Positions 49,669 through 60,993 of a stretch of DNA of 64,000 nt are shown piece after piece. The notes under the pieces are model-generated. The model had not been told where the DNA came from. It saw only the letters and a list, made by a program, of their open reading frames with translations, and made no database searches. Position numbers and translations under genes: made by a program. Origin of the DNA: an uncultured bacterium (lineage in GTDB: Bacteria > Patescibacteriota > Microgenomatia > UBA1400 > MFAQ01); the NCBI GenBank assembly GCA_963980225.1, contig CAXBYW010000002.1, positions 39,502-103,501 on the forward strand, written 5' to 3'. Numbering within the stretch: the stretch's first letter is position 1; every line of letters starts with the position of its first letter.

Positions 49669-50433
49669 ATGGCTAATGAATACGCAGGGTTTGATAATCA
49701 TGGATTTACTGAGTGGCTTAAGGATTTTTTACCTACTGGAGTGCTTGGGGCTTTTGTTAATGATAAAAATGGACGAATTCTTGTTCTTGGGGAGTTTGCT
49801 AACAAAGGCGCTGATAATGAGAAACATCTTTATAATCAATTGTTTATCTCAAATGATGGGCGAACTTTTCGTCAGATGTCGAGTGGTAGGCATGTAGTAC
49901 CTGGTGGCAGGCAAGTATCTTCATACAAAGATCCCGCATCAGAGAAAATGTATCGAATACATTTAAATGATGATGTGTGTCTTCGCTGCGAGGATACAAG
50001 TGAGTTGGTTACCAGGGCGTCTGCTCTTTATGATGTCGATATGTTGGTTAAGTATAAGCCTAACAATCTTCACCAAGCTCAATTTATACCCGTACCTGAG
50101 ATCCGCAAACCCGAATTTCTGTTTGAGTTTGATGATGAGCAGTATGTATATATCGATGCCTTGAAGTATTACGGATATACATCTAAACAGCTGCGCCTGT
50201 TTGTGGGCACACCTGATTCTATGCAACAGCAAGAAATCAAAAAATATCTCCGCGTCCCTGATACTAACGATATAGAAATCACTACAGATGCGGGTTTGCT
50301 GTACATACCGATTAATATCCGTGAAGGACATGCTCCACATTGGATGGATAAACCGATTGAAGGATTGGATTTAAGTAAAGACAAGTTCCTTGCTTTGATC
50401 ACCTCTTTTAACCTTATCCCACTTAACATCTAG
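49669..50433 (+). CDS. hypothetical protein, compositionally atypical (candidate horizontally acquired)
   Basis: AGGAGG RBS. Codon usage (CGC/CGT/CGA Arg, CTT/CTG Leu, GCG Ala) differs from neighbouring genes (AGA/AGG, TTG). No motif recognised. Confidence 0.35.
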   Translation: MANEYAGFDNHGFTEWLKDFLPTGVLGAFVNDKNGRILVLGEFANKGADNEKHLYNQLFISNDGRTFRQMSSGRHVVPGGRQVSSYKDPASEKMYRIHLNDDVCLRCEDTSELVTRASALYDVDMLVKYKPNNLHQAQFIPVPEIRKPEFLFEFDDEQYVYIDALKYYGYTSKQLRLFVGTPDSMQQQEIKKYLRVPDTNDIEITTDAGLLYIPINIREGHAPHWMDKPIEGLDLSKDKFLALITSFNLIPLNI

Positions 50434-53699: not shown

Positions 53700-54427
53700 T
53701 TTGGTTGAGTTAATGGGTCAAATATTTCTAGAGGATGGCTGACTGGTGTGCCAGGAAGAATTTCTACCAGTCTTTTCCCGTCTCTCATCGGAAAACTAGG
53801 AGTGTCTTTTAGTCTCTTGGATCTCTTTATCTCTTGGATGAAGATTTGAGGAAACTGGGGGTTGATAGATTTAATGACAACTTGATACTTGTAACCTGAT
53901 TTTATGAACTTACTTAGTGAGAGAGATAGGTCATCTGGTAGTCGACCTATGTATTCCTTGGTGTCTTCAGAGAAAGCTTTTATTCTTCTTGCTGAGGGTT
54001 TTAAGGTAACAGCATCCCCAATGGTTAGGTTGGCAATCATTGTGGGACTGCCTGGTTTTATCAAAGGTACAATTTTGGAAATCCCCGGTTCTTCTATGAA
54101 GTTGACAAGGGTGGTTTTGGGTTGATCTTTTTCTATTGAATTTGTGTCTTTAGGTTGGAGTTTTAATTTAGAGAGATTCTTCAAGGCAATGGTGTTTTGA
54201 GGATTTAGCTTTAAGACTTTGTTGAATGTCTTTCTGGCTAATTGAGCTTGAGAGGTTTTTAAGTAAGCTACTCCCAACCTATTTAAAGAAGCGAGGTTTT
54301 TGGGGAAGATCCTGATTATTTCTAGATTTAATTCAATTGCCTGTTTCCAGTCGTTGTTGAGATTAGCATGAATAGCCTTGTTTTCTAGTGGAGTGATATC
54401 TTGTTGTTGATCCATACTGGTAGTCAA
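53696..54427 (-). CDS. TPR-repeat protein
   Basis: Three N-terminal TPR-like repeats (WKQAIELNLEII..., LNRLGVAYLKTSQAQLARKTFNKVLKLNPQN). Confidence 0.45.
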   Translation of the reverse strand: MTTSMDQQQDITPLENKAIHANLNNDWKQAIELNLEIIRIFPKNLASLNRLGVAYLKTSQAQLARKTFNKVLKLNPQNTIALKNLSKLKLQPKDTNSIEKDQPKTTLVNFIEEPGISKIVPLIKPGSPTMIANLTIGDAVTLKPSARRIKAFSEDTKEYIGRLPDDLSLSLSKFIKSGYKYQVVIKSINPQFPQIFIQEIKRSKRLKDTPSFPMRDGKRLVEILPGTPVSHPLEIFDPLTQPN

Positions 54428-54479
54428 TATATGTTTTAAATACTGTTAAGTCAAGGGGGTAGATGATAGAATTTAGATT

Positions 54480-55007
54480 ATGTCCGGACATTCTAAGTGG
54501 TCTACCATAAAACATAAAAAAGCGGCGACGGATGCTAAGAGGGGAGTAGTGTTTGGTAGAATAGCAAAGCAAATTTACTTGGCGGTAAAGGAAGGTGGCT
54601 CCGGTGATCCAGATAAAAACCCCATCTTAAGAAAATCACTGGATGATGCTAGAGGCGCAAATATGCCTGCTGATAATGTGCGACGCGCAATTGATAAGGC
54701 TTTAGGTATGAGCGGAGGTCAAGTTATGGAAGAAACTGATTATGAAGGCTATGGCCCAGGCGGCGTAGGAATAATCATTAAGTGTGTAACTGATAATAAG
54801 AACAGAACTGGTGGGGAAGTTAGGTTCCTATTTGAGAAAAGCGAAGGAAGTTTGGGTGAACCAGGATCGGTATCCTATATGAAGAAGATTGACCCTGTAC
54901 CGATGATTGAGCTGACCGGGGATGATTTGGTAAAGGTAAAGAAATTGATAGCTGTTTTAGATGAACATGAAGATGTGGTGTCTGTATGGTCTAACTTAAA
55001 ATCATAA
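54480..55007 (+). CDS. YebC/PmpR-family transcriptional regulator (short form)
   Basis: MSGHSKWSTIKHKKAATDAKRG N-terminus diagnostic of YebC. Confidence 0.85.
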   Translation: MSGHSKWSTIKHKKAATDAKRGVVFGRIAKQIYLAVKEGGSGDPDKNPILRKSLDDARGANMPADNVRRAIDKALGMSGGQVMEETDYEGYGPGGVGIIIKCVTDNKNRTGGEVRFLFEKSEGSLGEPGSVSYMKKIDPVPMIELTGDDLVKVKKLIAVLDEHEDVVSVWSNLKS

Positions 55008-55832
55008 ATGTCAAAAAGACTAAAATTTATATCGGTAGCTGGTGTGTTGGGGGTGTTTTTGTGGCTATCTAGTTTTGTGGTGGTTGAGAATCGGTTTACG
55101 ATGATACTTGCTGCTACCGCAGTTTCTTATGTCTTGTCTGTGTGGGTTTTGTTTGAGGATTTAAAGGGTATGGAATGGATTACTTTGATGATTTTGCCTG
55201 TCATGTTTACTTTGGGATTTGGCCTGTTTACTAACCTGTTGCCTGATGCGGTACCTAACTTATTAGGATTGAGATTTGAGATAGAAACGGCAATTGTGAT
55301 GGCTAAGGTGGTTAAGGGGATATTTGTTTTACTCTACATCTTGGGTCTATACGCAATATATCTTCTGGAAAATATTATCTCTGTGGCATCTATTAGAACA
55401 ATACAGCTTTTGAGGGCAGCTAGGTCCATGGGTTTTGTGATGAGTCTGGTGGTGTCTCTGTTCTTCTTTGCGGTGACTCTAAGCTTAAAACTACCGTTCT
55501 ATTGGATTGGTTTAAATTTAGCAGTAGTAAGTTATTTGTTATCTTATGGTCATTTGTGGAGTATTGACATTAAGGATGAAAGTAGGCGAGTGGTTAAGTT
55601 GTATAGTTTGACGATCGCTTTTTTAATGGGACTTTTGGGGGTAGTGATGGCCTTTTGGCCGGTGACGGCCTTTATGGGCGGTTTAATGATGACGGTATTC
55701 TTTTATACTCATCTGGGGATCTTAGAAAACTATTTGAAGCATCGCTCTCATGGAGAGTCCCTGGTTGAGTACTTGGTGTTTGGATTAATTATCTTTATTA
55801 TTGGATTTGCGACAACCTCCTGGCGAGGTTAA
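55008..55832 (+). CDS. hypothetical polytopic membrane protein
   Basis: 7-8 TM helices. Followed by palindromic hairpin gaatagattatctattc. Confidence 0.35.
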   Translation: MSKRLKFISVAGVLGVFLWLSSFVVVENRFTMILAATAVSYVLSVWVLFEDLKGMEWITLMILPVMFTLGFGLFTNLLPDAVPNLLGLRFEIETAIVMAKVVKGIFVLLYILGLYAIYLLENIISVASIRTIQLLRAARSMGFVMSLVVSLFFFAVTLSLKLPFYWIGLNLAVVSYLLSYGHLWSIDIKDESRRVVKLYSLTIAFLMGLLGVVMAFWPVTAFMGGLMMTVFFYTHLGILENYLKHRSHGESLVEYLVFGLIIFIIGFATTSWRG

Positions 55833-56687
55833 TGAATAGATTATCTATTCAACTTCAAAAAAAGTTTTTGATACGTCAACCCAAAGGGGGGGAGTGCTAT
55901 AGGGTCTTTAGGCCTATAATTATATATCCTATAAAACTGGGCTGTGTTTTCACGAAATATAGGTCTTTTCACGGCTAGCAGTCTATGTGGATAACTGCTG
56001 ATATAGAATGATATAGTTATGCGGCATAGGCAGAGGAGGGAGGATGACAGTGCTTGGAGAGGTAATTAAATGTAATTGGTGGTCGCCACTCCCTAGTAGA
56101 GGTCCCTGAAGTATTTTCTTTAATAATTTTTTTTTGGTGGTTGACACTTCCCTTTTGCAATAGAGGAGAGCTAAACCAGAATGATATATAGAGTGTCGTA
56201 CAATGTTACTTATGCGACGTCACCTTGGAGCGATTGTGGAACAGTAGTGGTTGTCCTCGACTTTGGTAATCTGTATAAAATCCCGAAGAGATTTGTTACT
56301 TGACTGTTTACGCTTACTATCCCCTTGATTGTTGGTGCATGAAGTTACTTAAGGGCTTGATTGGTTGATTTATAGATTAACCCGAATGTTTTAATCCAAA
56401 AAATATCAAACTAGTCATTGGGATGCGGTGATCGAGATGTACTTAATCATAAAGAAAGTCAGGGGCCGTTTTAGGGGCATTAGAAGGGCTTGTAGCCTCG
56501 AAATACTGTGTTTTAAGGCATGATTTTAACGTTTGCCATGTGTTCTTGTGCTTGACATGTAAACTTTAAGATTAACAATGAATTAAAGATTGAGTATCAT
56601 AACTTGGTACTTGTTTCACTGTGGCGGTGAACAGATTCTTGTCTCCCTTTGGGAACAGGACGTGGACAACATTTTGTTGTTCTGCAT

Positions 56688-56762
56688 TAAAGGTGAATAA
56701 TTTTTCTAGAGAGCTTTTTTCTCAAGCAAACTTTATTCACCTTTTTTATTTTTTGTATTTCA
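56688..56762 (+). terminator. putative intrinsic terminator (long stem-loop plus T-rich run)
   Basis: aggtgaataa...ttattcacct inverted repeat followed by ttttttattttttg. Confidence 0.3.
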
Positions 56763-56848
56763 GTCGATATTTAGCATATAAAAATATATAGGATATTATC
56801 TCTAAAAAAAAGGTTACCCCCCTACCCCACTGGTGGTATCGAAAAATA

Positions 56849-56877
56849 TTGACAGATGAATACTTGTTCAATATAAT
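56849..56877 (+). promoter_or_regulatory. perfect-consensus sigma70 promoter in noncoding region
   Basis: TTGACA (56849-56854), 17-nt spacer, TATAAT (56872-56877). Confidence 0.5.
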
Positions 56878-57409
56878 TCTTTCTTACACAACCTTGGAGG
56901 TAACTACCGATGCGTAAGAGCCTACCAAAAGCCGTTGTGAAGAGATCTGTAGAAGGTGATTATCGACAATCATCGAGCAGGCCAGGATTCGGACCTGGTA
57001 CCTCATCCAATGGCGTAAAAAGTTGACTTGTCCAACCCCTAATCCTTTATATTTAGGGCAAGTCAACCGCAAATTAATAATCTCAGACAATGTTTGTAAT
57101 GTGGACAAAAAAAGTCTGAGAATATATAACTTGGAGGAACCACAATGCGTAGACCTCCCCCCTTTAGGGTACGACCAAGAAGTCGGACTTCTTCACGAAG
57201 GAGCCGAACTTTTTCGAGTCGACCCTCACTGTCGCAATCGCGACGTAGCGGTCGAAGCTGCGGGCCAGATGAAGGATCTGGTATCCGTATTTAGCTTCTG
57301 ACTGTAACAACTATACGGCCAATCATTCTTATTTAAAAGATTTTCAAGAATGGTTGGCCAGTTTTTTGTTCTTTGCATGTCGCACATTGGAATGTGCTAG
57401 TATTGAGTT

Positions 57410-58354
57410 ATGGCGAAAGAAAAAAAAGAAGAACAAGTTTTAAGCAAGCTAATATCAAAATATTTAAGACATATTGAGCTAGAGAAGAATTACTCACCCT
57501 ATACCTTAAGGAACTATAAATATTATTTAAACTTTTTTAAAAATTGGTTTGAGAAGAAATATGAACAGGAGTATATCCAGAGGTTGACGAGTGAGATGGT
57601 AAGTAGTTATCGGTTGCACTTATCTAGACACGAGGATGAAAAAGGTAAGGGTTTGTCTGCGGCCACCCAAAGCTATTACATCATTTCCTTGAGGGCATTT
57701 TTAAAGTTTTTAGCAAAGAAAGGAATTAAAAGTTTGAGTGCAGAGAAAATAGATTTACCAAAAGTGGGTAGTAGGCAGATTAAGTTTCTAACTAGAGACC
57801 AAGTAGAGAGGCTACTAACGACTCCAGACTTGACAACAGTAAATGGCTTAAGAGATAGAACGATTTTGGAGGTATTATTCAGTACAGGTTTAAGGGTAAG
57901 TGAGATGGCTAAGCTCAATAGAGACAAGATTGATTTGAAAGCCAAGGAGTTTGGGATTATTGGAAAAGGTCGACGATCTAGAGTTGTGTTTTTAACGGAG
58001 AGATCTTGTGATTGGCTCAAAAGATACTTAAGTACAAGAGACGATCAATATAAACCATTGTGGATTAGATATTCTGGTAAGGCGGCTGATATCACCTCTT
58101 CTGGCGATAGTATGAGACTGTCTGTAAGAAGTATTCAAAGATTGGTCGAGAAATATAGAAGATTGGCGGGACTACCAATGAAGGTTAGCCCACACACCTT
58201 GAGACATTCTACTGCCACTACCCTACTCTCTTCCGGAGCAAATTTGAGATCTGTCCAAGAAATTTTGGGACATAAAAATGTAGCCACTACTCAGATATAT
58301 ACTCATATCACTAACCCCCAGTTAAAGAAAATCCACGAGAAATACTTGAAGTAA
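57410..58354 (+). CDS. tyrosine site-specific recombinase XerC/XerD-like
   Basis: N-terminal SAM-like core-binding domain. C-terminal HTLRHSTATTLLSSGANLRSVQEILGHKNVATTQIYTHI (HxxR...Y catalytic motifs). R in LRVSE box. Confidence 0.85.
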   Translation: MAKEKKEEQVLSKLISKYLRHIELEKNYSPYTLRNYKYYLNFFKNWFEKKYEQEYIQRLTSEMVSSYRLHLSRHEDEKGKGLSAATQSYYIISLRAFLKFLAKKGIKSLSAEKIDLPKVGSRQIKFLTRDQVERLLTTPDLTTVNGLRDRTILEVLFSTGLRVSEMAKLNRDKIDLKAKEFGIIGKGRRSRVVFLTERSCDWLKRYLSTRDDQYKPLWIRYSGKAADITSSGDSMRLSVRSIQRLVEKYRRLAGLPMKVSPHTLRHSTATTLLSSGANLRSVQEILGHKNVATTQIYTHITNPQLKKIHEKYLK

Positions 58355-58359
58355 TTTTG

Positions 58360-60993
58360 TTACTTTTTATTGATGGCAGTGATAGCGGCTACTGAATCCC
58401 CCGCTTTATTGAAACGCATGAGTATTACTCCTTGGGTTGGTCTTTTTAAAACAGTAATGTTCTTTATTGGTAGTTTGATTGCCTGAGCTTTGGTGGTAGT
58501 GATGATTAGTTCATCTGAATTTTGATCTACCATAACAGCACCGGCTATTTTTCCTGTTTTTTCGGTTACATCAGAAACTTTTAGACCTTGTCCACCCCTC
58601 TTTTGAGCAGGATATTGATTGAGAGGAGTTCTTTTACCTAGGCCATTTTTTGTGACGATTAGTAGATCCCTAAAAGCTTTCTTTCTCTTGTCTTTAAACT
58701 TTACTTGATTGGACGTGAAACACTCTAGAGACACACAGAAGTCATCTTTCTTTAGACTAATACCTCTAACTCCCATGGTGTCTCTTTTGGTAGCTCTGAC
58801 ATCTGATTCTTTAAATCTGATTGACTTACCATCCCTGGTAACTAAAAGAATATGATGGTCTCCAGATGTTTGATTAACCCAAACCAATTGATCCTTTTTA
58901 GTTAGATTGATGGCGATTAGACCATTGCTTTTAATGTTGGCGTATTGAGACAAAAGAGTTTTCTTAACAGTTCCTTGTCTGGTGGTGAAGAAAAGATAGG
59001 TATCTTTTTTGTCTAGGTCTTCTTTACCCAAAGGAAGTATGGCTTGAACCCTCTCTTCACCTTCGATGTTTATTAGATTAATGATGGCTTGACCCTTACT
59101 GGTTCTTGAGCCTTCTGGGAGTTCCCAAACTTTTAAAGAAAACACGCGACCCTTGTTGGTGAACACTAAAAGCTCATCATGAGTGTTGGCATTAGTCAGT
59201 AAACGGATGTTATCTGTTTCTCTTACAGACATTCCAGTCACTCCTTTACCACCTCTTCTTTGGCTTTTAAATATTCCTCGAGGCATGCGTTTTATGTAAC
59301 CAGACTTAGTAAGAGCAACGATGGTTTCTTCTTGAGGTACTAAATCTTCTTCTGAAAAATTTTCTATTGATGAAGCTACAACTTTTGTTTTTCTTTTGTC
59401 TCCGTAAATTTTGGTCAGCTCTACTAGCTCCTCTTTAATTATTTGAAGTACTTTTTCAGGTGATTTTAGTGTTATTACTATCTCTTTAATTATTCGAAGT
59501 AATTCATCATATTCATCTTGGATTTTTTCTCTTTCTAAGGCTGCTAAGCGACGCAACTGCATTTCTAAAATGGCTTCTGCTTGAAGTTCTGATAGTTTGA
59601 ATTTGGTCGTTAAATTCTTTTTAGCATCTACCTGATCTTTACTTTTCTTGATGGTTTCTATTATTTTGTCGATGTTGGCAAGGGCGATGAGTAGTCCCTC
59701 GAGTATGTGGGCTCTCTTTTTGGCGTTTGTGAGGTCGAATTGATTTCTTCTAACGATTACTCCTTGACGATGAATAACAAACTCTACAAGAATACTTTTA
59801 AGATTTAGTAGGCTGGGAACTCCTTTGGAAGTAAGGGCCACGACGTTGGCAGGATAGTTTATTTGTAGATCAGTATGTTTGTATAGTTGGTTAAGAATAC
59901 TTTTGGGCTTGGCGTCTTTTTTGAGATCTACTGCGATAGTTAGACCTTTTCTGTCTGATTCGTCTCTCAGGTCTTTGATACCGGTTATCTTTTTTTGTTT
60001 TACCAAGTCGGCAATTTTGGTAATTAATTTTGCTTTATTTACTTGATATGGAAGTTCGGAGATCAATATTTGCAACCTACCGTTCTTGTTTTCTATTATT
60101 TCAGCTACTCCCCTAACTTTAATACTGGCTTTACCAGTGTGGTAGAGTTTTTCTATTTCTTTTTTATCGTAGATGATGCCAGCGGTAGGGAAATCTGGTC
60201 CCTTAATGTGTTTTACTAGATGCTCCACCTGAGCTTTGGATGTTAGTTCACCGGTAATTTTTGAATAATGGGTGGTTTCAAGATCTTTATCTTCTATTTT
60301 ATTTGTAACGCTGACACTACTCTGGTCAATCAGTTCTTTTATGGCTTCAGTTATTTCACCTAAGTTGTGAGGTGGAATCTTGGTAGCCATACCTACGGCA
60401 ATGCCGTCCCCGCCCATTAGAAGTAGATTGGGAAGTCTGGCTGGCAAAACGTCAGGTTCTTGTTGGCTGCCATCAAAATTGTCACTGAAGTTTACAGTAT
60501 CCTTTTCGATGTCTTTGGTGAGCTCTTGAGCAATCTTAGTTAGCCTGGCTTCTGTGTAACGCATGGCAGCAGCGGAATCACCGTCGATAGAACCAAAGTT
60601 ACCTTGACCGTCCACTAACGGATAACGCATAGAGAATTCTTGAGCCAAGCGAACCATTGTTTGGTAGACAGCCTGGTCTCCATGAGGGTGGTATTTACCT
60701 AGAACCTCACCAACTACACGAGCTGATTTTTTATATGAACTTTTATGAGTGAGGCCCATTTCTTTCATGGCGAAAAGAATACGCCTATGAACTGGTTTTA
60801 GCCCATCTCTTACGTCTGGTAAGGCACGGGACACAATAACACTCATGGCGTAGTCTACATATGACTTCTCCATTTCATCAATGATTCCGGTTGCTTGAAT
60901 TAGTCCAAACTTGGTTGATTTGGGCTCACTACTACCATTAGAATCATCATTTTCTTGATCGACGATGGTTGGTATTTTTGTGTCTTTATCCAT
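58360..60993 (-). CDS. gyrA: DNA gyrase subunit A
   Basis: AMRYTEARL active-site Tyr region. C-terminal beta-pinwheel repeats. 877 aa. Confidence 0.95.

Follow-up and report, generated by a model that had tools for sequence, protein, structure and literature searches.

How should two small open reading frames (ORFs) be read when each starts behind a Shine-Dalgarno (SD) sequence that the surrounding RNA would hide? The question is raised by a 64,000-nucleotide stretch of contig CAXBYW010000002.1, from an uncultured bacterium of the Patescibacteriota (hereafter the window), in which a gene-free gap of 1,577 nt (55833-57409) contains both ORFs. An initial annotation of this DNA had described the pair as small ORFs and had allowed that the second might instead be a structured RNA read fortuitously as an ORF. 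We favor, tentatively and at a little less than an even chance, a reading in which the locus encodes a lineage-restricted, selected, structured RNA of two paralogous modules, carrying hairpin-gated and probably translated small ORFs whose sequence is unconstrained. The features on which this reading draws, all on the + strand, are as follows.

56849-56877, +: sigma-70 consensus promoter TTGACA-17-TATAAT, a perfect match
56884-57128, +: module A, a structured RNA domain, fold z = -5.8
56887-56939, +: stem-loop H1, first copy of the SD/AUG hairpin, enclosing GGAGG 56896-56900 and AUG 56910-56912, -14.1 kcal/mol
56910-57026, +: ORF1, 38 codons
56946-56981, 56981-56999, 57022-57067 and 57081-57121, +: helices H2, H3, H4 and H5 of module A, which follow H1 (56887-56939)
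57129-57312, +: module B, in the window a structured domain of high GC content (55%), fold z = -5.2
57133-57158, +: second copy of the SD/AUG hairpin, GGAGG 57133-57137 with CCUCC 57154-57158, AUG 57145 in a 16-nt loop, -6.8 kcal/mol
57145-57294, +: ORF2, 49 codons, Arg/Ser-rich
57262-57288, +: 27-nt block of module B, 96% identical to that of relative L014, with the hairpin CCAGAU-GAAGG-AUCUGG at 57265-57281
57317-57367, +: intrinsic terminator, 14-bp stem (57317-57330 with 57346-57359), 15-nt loop and U-run 57362-57367, -20.3 kcal/mol

The two start contexts, CTTGGAGGTAACTACCGATGCGTA at 56893-56916 and CTTGGAGGAACCACAATGCGTA at 57130-57151, are near-identical, as first described, and the lengths of 38 and 49 codons given for the ORFs were confirmed. 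ORF1 starts at 56910, not at 56909. A spacing of 7-8 nt between GGAGG and ATG had been given for both; this holds for ORF2 (7 nt from 57133-57137), whereas the distance for ORF1 is 9 nt (from 56896-56900). The window holds just these two matches to their common pattern, and the corresponding expectation of 0 in shuffled sequence is circular, the pattern having been derived from the two sites themselves.

The pairing of the second GGAGG with a downstream CCTCC, which would occlude the start, was borne out (57133-57137 with 57154-57158, the ATG in the 16-nt loop, -6.8 kcal/mol). A single GGAGG..ATG..CCTCC site is not rare on its own, with 0.12 expected per window. Sequestration had been proposed for the second site only, a limit that does not stand, as H1 (-14.1 kcal/mol) would also sequester the first. 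The likeness of the two contexts runs past ATGCGTA through the loop and into the 3' arm, GA(G)CCU(A)CC: the A copy reads CUUGGAGGUAACUACCGAUGCGUAAGAGCCUACC and the B copy CUUGGAGG-AACCACA-AUGCGUA-GA-CCUCC. Because the similarity continues that far, the contexts are best described as two copies of one predicted stem-loop, GGAGG / AUGCGUA loop / CCU(A)CC.

To place these hairpins in an evolutionary context, we used relatives with the same gene order, reached via gyrA and the Xer protein, among which L019 carries a homologue of module A and L014 one of module B. The SD is predicted to be base-paired in 4/4 module copies (window A, L019 A, window B and L014 B). Both the SD and the AUG are kept in all four, the SD being purine-rich (GGAGG in three, AGAGG in one) and 5-9 nt before the AUG. 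H1 of L019 is predicted at -17.0 kcal/mol, with UUUGGAGG paired with CUCCAAA. In L014, the SD and AUG stay in place though the pairing partner of the SD has changed. In the full-length ensemble of the window RNA, the probability of being unpaired is <0.01 for both GGAGGs, and the minimum-energy fold exchanges arms between the two paralogous hairpins.

A consensus promoter had been noted at 56849, and rightly so: TTGACA-17-TATAAT at 56849-56877 is the sole perfect sigma-70 match in the window, where 0.01 would be expected. We infer a transcription start near 56884. At the equivalent position, the relatives have TTGACA-17-TATAAT (L019) and TTTACA-17-TATAAT (L014). A consensus terminator scan, which allows loops of up to 8 nt, overlooked the hairpin at 57317-57367 with its 15-nt loop. 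With this terminator, a single transcript of ~490 nt is predicted, from 56884 to ~57367, containing both small ORFs. At the level of sequence, then, a short RNA is bounded by its own promoter and intrinsic terminator, as is asked of a small RNA (sRNA) gene. Module A of L019 is terminated by a different hairpin followed by U7.

The predicted ~490-nt RNA folds at -175.5 kcal/mol, with z = -8.55 for the + strand versus -5.7 for the - strand. Module A contains a three-way junction with H2 and H3, which is formed in the window and in L019 from different sequences, and the L019 homologue has a fold z of -5.6. To assess covariation, we named four helices (32 pairs) from the window sequence and counted on the window/L019 alignment. 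Across the two sequences, 98.4% of cells are paired, compared to 23-42% with the partners slid. Four pairs changed on both sides (compensatory changes) and five show one-sided changes to or from G.U, all of this in two sequences only. Six of the module A G.U pairs would be A.C mismatches if read on the minus strand, which makes + the structured strand. These data support the structured-RNA alternative of the initial annotation insofar as module A keeps its four helices by compensatory changes, and depart from it in that hairpin-gated start sites persist as well.

Module B conserves less. The structures common to the window and L014 are an invariant 3' hairpin and an SD-covering hairpin of different partner, only. 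The 3' hairpin lies in the block at 57262-57288, whose first 21 nt are identical to L014, against a neutral identity of 0.50. Rfam (4227 models) gave no match at E<=1 in 54000-59000, and a scan of the whole window at gathering score returned three tRNAs only; ARAGORN found no tmRNA, and no tRNA near the locus. RNase P, tmRNA and 6S were considered both for the module RNA and for a conserved block upstream of it, and set aside, with no Rfam match and no conserved motifs recognized by eye. Nor does the RNA look like an sRNA that titrates CsrA/RsmA: it has 9 GGA trinucleotides versus 8.5 +/- 2.0 in dinucleotide shuffles, hence no enrichment. The conserved loop GGAs number two, one in the H3 loop and one in the loop of the module B 3' hairpin.

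We then compared the content of the region across relatives. Between a conserved block of ~620 nt and xer, the recombinase gene that closes the gap, lies a stretch of 50-936 nt whose content varies by lineage.

Window: an unrelated small promoter-plus-terminator unit at 56523-56816, module A at 56884-57128, module B plus terminator at 57129-57367
L019 (Xer 87% identical to that of the window): the perfect promoter again, then a homologue of module A with a terminator of its own; B absent
L014/L015 (Xer 92%): TTTACA-17-TATAAT, what remains of H5, and a homologue of module B; A absent
L016-L018, L002, L020, L021 and L022 (Xer 82-90%; for L002, gyrA 85% instead): neither module
L029, L043 and L044 (Xer 76-77%): neither module

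In L014/L015, module B runs into the xer promoter without a terminator. The modules are separable, and dispensable in sister lineages; most of the close relatives lack the unit altogether, among them five besides L019 and L014/L015. No second copy of the unit occurs in the window, and collections of phages and plasmids contained nothing similar to it. Viral contigs gave no match to the common motif, an A motif or a B motif. A metagenome scan with a 20-mer from module B returned one contig identical to the window and five chance matches in nuoF-like genes.

For the neutral level, we took fourfold-degenerate sites in four flanking genes, where identity is 50% for window/L014 and 44% for window/L019. 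Module B is 67% identical to L014 and module A 62% identical to L019 (aligned columns), both above that level, and the module alignments contain exact runs of 21 and 14 nt. On the grounds of aligned identity above fourfold sites, exact runs and the retained promoter, both modules are not drifting neutrally.

What, then, is being conserved in the ORFs? An ORF of at least 38 codons is open after the AUG in 4/4 module copies (38, 38, 49 and 63 codons); the chance of equal openness in shuffled sequence is 0.09, 0.12, 0.13 and 0.006, respectively. The counterpart of ORF2 in L014 is the one of 63 codons, and its frame is kept. Between conserved anchors, the module B length differences for window/L014 are 3, 9, 6 and 3 nt, all multiples of three (chance ~0.012). 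In the variable regions of the nine lineages, modules excluded, SD-ATG ORFs that reach 25 codons number just one, a minus-strand frame at a contig end in L021.

The peptides themselves behave differently. Those of ORF1 are unrelated between the window and L019, with BLASTP aligning 10 residues only (E 0.024); indels of 7 and 14 nt inside ORF1 shift the middle frame, and both ORFs stay open. ORF2 and the L014 peptide are 43% identical, mostly owing to a block without nucleotide differences. Both ORF2 versions are Arg-rich and have GPDEGSG(I/L)R(I/V) in common. The shared GPDEGSG corresponds to 21 identical nt with no synonymous change, and these nucleotides form a hairpin, for which reasons the constraint is one on the nucleotides. 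Mismatches in ORF2 are distributed over the codon positions as 14:16:14, compared to 19:8:74 (%) in the four flanking genes at the same divergence. The chi-square test against the flanking-gene pattern gives p = 2e-14, and the other two codon phases are rejected too, so that an ORF on the minus strand is disfavored as well.

Codon usage points the same way. Among the genes of the window, AGA/AGG make up 77% of Arg codons and CGN 23%; ORF2 uses CGN in 10/14, in keeping with the initial remark that its CGA/CGT codons are rare elsewhere. Its codon score, -0.415 per codon, is below that of every in-frame 45-codon chunk of 56 window genes. ORF1 scores 0.125, at the 17th percentile. Searches for peptide homologues, which had been suggested as a check, found none in protein databases or in Pfam and NCBIfam apart from a single spurious match: a word-index search with ORF2 and its L014 version gave no candidate among 5.8 billion proteins, an exhaustive search of 1.84 billion cluster representatives with ORF1 gave only a spurious hit to a repeat protein, and six candidate peptides had nothing in Pfam or NCBIfam at E<=1. 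Both peptides would be hydrophilic and basic, with no hydrophobic stretch. As judged from sequence, ORF1 and ORF2 are not ordinary small-protein genes. The description of the pair as small ORFs survives to the extent that SD, AUG and openness are kept in all copies, and fails for the peptides, which are not conserved and show flat codon-position substitutions.

A further frame was tried and rejected. A TTG-start ORF of 92 amino acids (57023-57301, +) runs across module B and is called as a gene in several public assemblies (L033, L034, L038 and L039). It has three stops in the L014 frame, and the gene call is probably spurious.

These observations could be joined in the following way. The SD/AUG hairpins would be real start sites, kept mostly closed by structure; when they open, ribosomes would translate the short ORFs. 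Selection would act on ORF openness and translation, as well as on RNA structure, and not on the encoded peptide, the ORFs yielding at most fast-evolving basic peptides. Since it is openness and translation that would matter, not the product, translation would act in cis on the RNA, by unfolding it, altering its stability or altering termination ahead of xer. The unit is confined to a handful of near relatives, and its sequence marks it as a lineage-specific, regulatory-type RNA rather than an ordinary pair of protein genes.

Several points count against this interpretation. Module B of L014, with z = -1.4, is not significantly structured. Module B has three frames open (+0, -1 and -2) in either species, so that an open frame tells little in a stretch as rich in GC as this one. 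The ORF2 stop is not conserved, the L014 ORF extending 38 nt into xer, and the ORF2 codon score is lower than that of 98.8% of off-frame chunks of real genes. The folds offered no convincing antiterminator alternative, no dedicated search for alternative structures having been run. Because xer has a conserved extended -10 promoter of its own, from which it is probably leaderless, a cis effect on xer is not required. Finally, each module is represented by two distinct sequences and the pairs are not independent, which makes all of the statistics weak. More than 20 contigs from many samples carry the window's own Xer protein, and at ten further such loci the intergenic region is 100% identical and hence without polymorphism. 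The initial annotation had set preservation of the frame against preservation of pairing in homologous regions. The comparison gives some of each: openness and the module A helices are kept, while module B of L014 is weakly folded and the ORF1 frame is shifted.

The surroundings of the unit bear on some of the alternatives. The neighboring features are these.

55008-55832, +: gene for a DUF5656 membrane protein, left neighbor of the gap
56193-56220: dif-like 28-bp imperfect palindrome, GTGTCGTACAA-TGTTAC-TTATGCGACGT, invariant in all nine relatives
57378-57387: left-arm-only dif-like copy (TGTCGCACAT), just before the xer ATG, in all relatives
57410-58354, +: xer, encoding an XerC/XerD-like tyrosine recombinase of 314 amino acids, right neighbor of the gap
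after xer, - strand: gyrA

The palindrome has the 11-6-11 layout of a dif site, with inner TTATG, and lies ~1.2 kb upstream of xer (~300 nt upstream in the minimal relative L022). For reference, dif of E. coli is GGTGCGCATAATGTATATTATGTTAAAT and the XerD arm of Xanthomonas is TTATGCGAAAT (PMC2731167). The + strand has a very strong GC skew of +0.35 to +0.48 over 1-56000, regardless of gene strand; at 57-58 kb the skew falls from about +0.35 to about 0, and past ~58 kb its values are about 0 to +0.1. Gene orientations are convergent on the gap at 55.8-57.4 kb. Together, the palindrome, the drop in skew and the converging genes suggest that a replication terminus is nearby, with a candidate dif site beside its recombinase gene. 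Linkage of a dif site to a recombinase gene has been described for xerS/difSL, and integration at dif leaves an element with dif on one side and a degenerate copy of dif on the other (PMC5357621).

Just before xer, at 57378-57412, a conserved extended -10 (TGCTAGTAT) ends 6 nt before the ATG, with no SD. All relatives have it, as TGnTAGTAT 6 nt 5' of the xer ATG, whether or not they carry modules; the 76-77% clade has TTGACA-18-TATGAT at its position. The xer gene is probably translated from a leaderless mRNA. Elsewhere in the window, gene starts mostly have a -10-like box (gNTATAAT-like) that ends 6-10 nt before the ATG and no SD, which suggests mainly leaderless mRNAs in this genome. Clear SDs (GGAGG, AGGAG) occur at a minority of starts, for example at 49669 and 52854. 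GGAGG-N5-10-ATG has 15 sites in the window (both strands), two of them real gene starts and two the starts of ORF1 and ORF2.

The ~620-nt block at 55909-56528 is ORF-free. Every relative has it, with 73-78% identity for the closer relatives and greater divergence for the others. Its invariant motifs are CCTATAAT, two TTTTCACG repeats (55947-55974), a perfect DnaA-box-like TGTGGATAA (55986) and a promoter-like TGCTGATATAGAATGATATAG. No Rfam model matched this block. It could be a large non-coding RNA, a control region for replication or segregation, or both. Its 3' end (56464-56520 in the window) carries the motif GCCGTTTTAGGGGCATTAGAAGGGCTTGTAGCC, which occurs twice in the 76-77% clade (L044, ~330-420 and 470-520) and may be a repeated structured element. 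Directly 3' of the block is a second variable slot (window 56523-56816; L019 3262-3500; L014 3510-3640), occupied in different lineages by unrelated small units of promoter, hairpin and U-run terminator; that of the window has promoters at 56552 and 56572, and its terminator spans 56689-56750. To judge by their sequence organization, these units look like lineage-specific sRNA genes. Just upstream of the module slot, at 56779-56830, most relatives retain the motifs TATATAGGRTATTWAT and CTCCCCTAC(C), irrespective of what the slot holds; these may be a promoter or operator. To the left of the gap, the YebC/PmpR-family protein encoded at 54480-55007 has 175 amino acids only, matching profile positions 1-133 of ~240, and the short form is kept in relatives (152-185 amino acids).

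Against this background, four other explanations of the unit can be weighed. Were the transcript a pure non-coding sRNA, GGAGG would serve only as one arm of a helix and AUGCGUA only as a motif of the loop, the ORFs would be fortuitous, and the RNA would act in trans via exposed, conserved loops or by binding protein. We consider this unlikely, though it deserves serious attention. The compensatory changes that conserve the module A helices, the flat codon-position substitutions, the aberrant codon usage of ORF2, the 7- and 14-nt indels that move the ORF1 frame, the lack of peptide homologues in the searches and the near-permanent pairing of both SDs in the ensemble would all fit it, as would a GC content of 55% at 57150-57300 in a window of 41% GC, which is typical of structured RNAs. 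What it leaves unexplained is the persistence of SD and AUG at start-site spacing in 4/4 copies, including that of L014 with its other helix partner, ORFs of at least 38 codons in the same four, and module B indels that are all multiples of three. The L014 B copy is not significantly structured, yet retains SD, AUG and ORF, and no Rfam family was found at E<=1. The same SDs, AUGs, ORFs and in-frame B indels could instead mark two real, fast-evolving small proteins, possibly basic or disordered, whose translation is limited by hairpins as in dual-function sRNAs or toxin mRNAs. For ORF2, the GPDEGSG(I/L)R(I/V) segment and the richness in Arg of both versions would add to the case. It is an improbable one: there is no third-position excess (p = 2e-14 versus the flanking-gene pattern), GPDEGSG is encoded by 21 identical, hairpin-forming nt, the ORF1 peptides are unrelated, the position of the stop codon is not conserved, and no homologue came from 5.8 billion (ORF2) or 1.84 billion (ORF1) entries, Pfam or NCBIfam.

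The unit might also be a non-functional relic, left over from DNA inserted near the terminus and dif, such as a decayed integrative element, and lost piecemeal in different lineages. With a full dif-like site to its left (56193-56220) and a copy of the left arm alone to its right (57378-57387), it resembles integrated elements in its flanks (PMC5357621); relatives with Xer 82-92% identical have, in a patchy pattern, both modules, either one alone or neither, and the shift in GC skew and the convergent genes suggest a terminus. We rate a relic as very unlikely all the same, with modules clearly more conserved than fourfold sites, a promoter at or near perfect consensus in three lineages, helices maintained by compensatory changes, and a universally conserved ~300 nt that keep the dif-like site apart from the variable part. 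No dif-like half-sites occur at the module junctions, and the unit has no similarity to phages, plasmids or viral contigs. An origin of the modules by integration of the type seen in integrative mobile elements exploiting Xer (IMEX) was rejected on the same absence of half-sites and stays a lead only. A bolder version, to which we give little credence, would make the spacer between the dif-like site and xer, in this Microgenomates clade, a cassette-like platform, where promoter-equipped modules of structured RNA and small ORFs are gained, lost and recombined, perhaps by Xer in an IMEX-like way; A and B would then be exchangeable, hairpin-gated translation units acting on functions of the chromosome terminus, and the modules may include unit 1 of the window, A, B and the unrelated ones of sister lineages. 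Least credible of all is a product of the minus strand, either an antisense RNA or an ORF of 48 amino acids (57310-57164) across module B. That frame is open in the window and in L014, with QILHLA in both, and in codon usage it outscores ORF2, at 0.11; a weak promoter-like site (9/12 positions) occupies 57337-57310, and H4 read in antisense is followed by UUUUU. But the + strand folds better (z -8.55 vs -5.7), six module A G.U pairs become A.C mismatches, L019 does not keep the U-run that follows antisense H4, and the ORF, whose TTG overlaps the putative -10 box, has neither an SD nor a conserved start. The flat substitutions across codon phases count against this frame too.

The favored reading, a structured RNA with gated and probably translated ORFs, would matter in two ways. 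Regulatory RNAs and small ORFs are barely known in the Patescibacteria, or candidate phyla radiation (CPR), and searches of the literature on CPR sRNAs and on leaderless translation turned up nothing of direct relevance. As CPR genomes are tiny and have little non-coding DNA, a 1.6-kb gene-free region with a strongly promoted, selected, structured RNA is unusual in this group. If the ORFs are translated and yet unconstrained in sequence, they would provide a clean natural case of selection on translation itself, not on protein. The general importance is modest, with the unit present in few near relatives and dispensable in sister lineages; the candidate dif site beside the Xer gene, with its hypervariable spacer, may be the more useful lead.

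The element belongs to no tested family of Rfam, Pfam or NCBIfam, and its likeness to known systems is one of design. Translational riboregulators and RNA thermometers share the pairing of GGAGG with a downstream CCUCC-like tract and the AUG in or near the loop, predicted here in 4/4 copies. They differ in that no ligand, temperature-sensing feature or trans-activator was identified here, no Rfam model matched, and the SD pairs with one partner in the window and with another in L014. In leader-peptide attenuators and regulatory upstream ORFs, such as trpL and ermCL, it is translation of the ORF that matters rather than its product, as it would in the reading proposed here. The arrangement is alike as well: the ORF2 stop is 22 nt before the terminator stem, upstream of the co-oriented xer, and the L014 ORF enters the xer start. 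Unlike attenuators, the element has no antiterminator pairing that we found and lacks a series of regulatory codons; in every relative, also where the modules are absent, xer is served by a conserved leaderless promoter of its own, and with 38-63 codons the ORFs exceed the usual size of leader peptides.

The geometry is also that of type I toxin mRNAs (hok/Sok, tisB/IstR-1, zorO/OrzO). There too a small ORF lies in a strongly folded RNA with its SD sequestered by 5' structure, as is predicted here, and a strong promoter, tandem paralogues, patchy distribution in close relatives and blank sequence searches are further points in common. Their toxins are hydrophobic membrane helices, whereas the peptides here would be hydrophilic and basic, with no protein-level selection. 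Moreover, no conserved gene for an antisense or antitoxin RNA is evident: the candidates are the 9/12 minus-strand promoter-like site at 57337-57310 and a minus-strand hairpin plus U5 at H4, the latter not conserved in L019.

Dual-function sRNAs with a small ORF include SgrS/SgrT, RNAIII/hld and SR1/SR1P, in which the peptide is conserved and functional and base-pairing targets are known. Like these, the element is predicted to be independently transcribed and terminated, highly structured and a few hundred nt long, with an SD, an AUG and a short ORF; unlike them, its peptides are not conserved, and it has two paralogous ORF-bearing modules. By analogy, the element would work most like a dual-function sRNA, or like a structured small-ORF mRNA with a sequestered SD.

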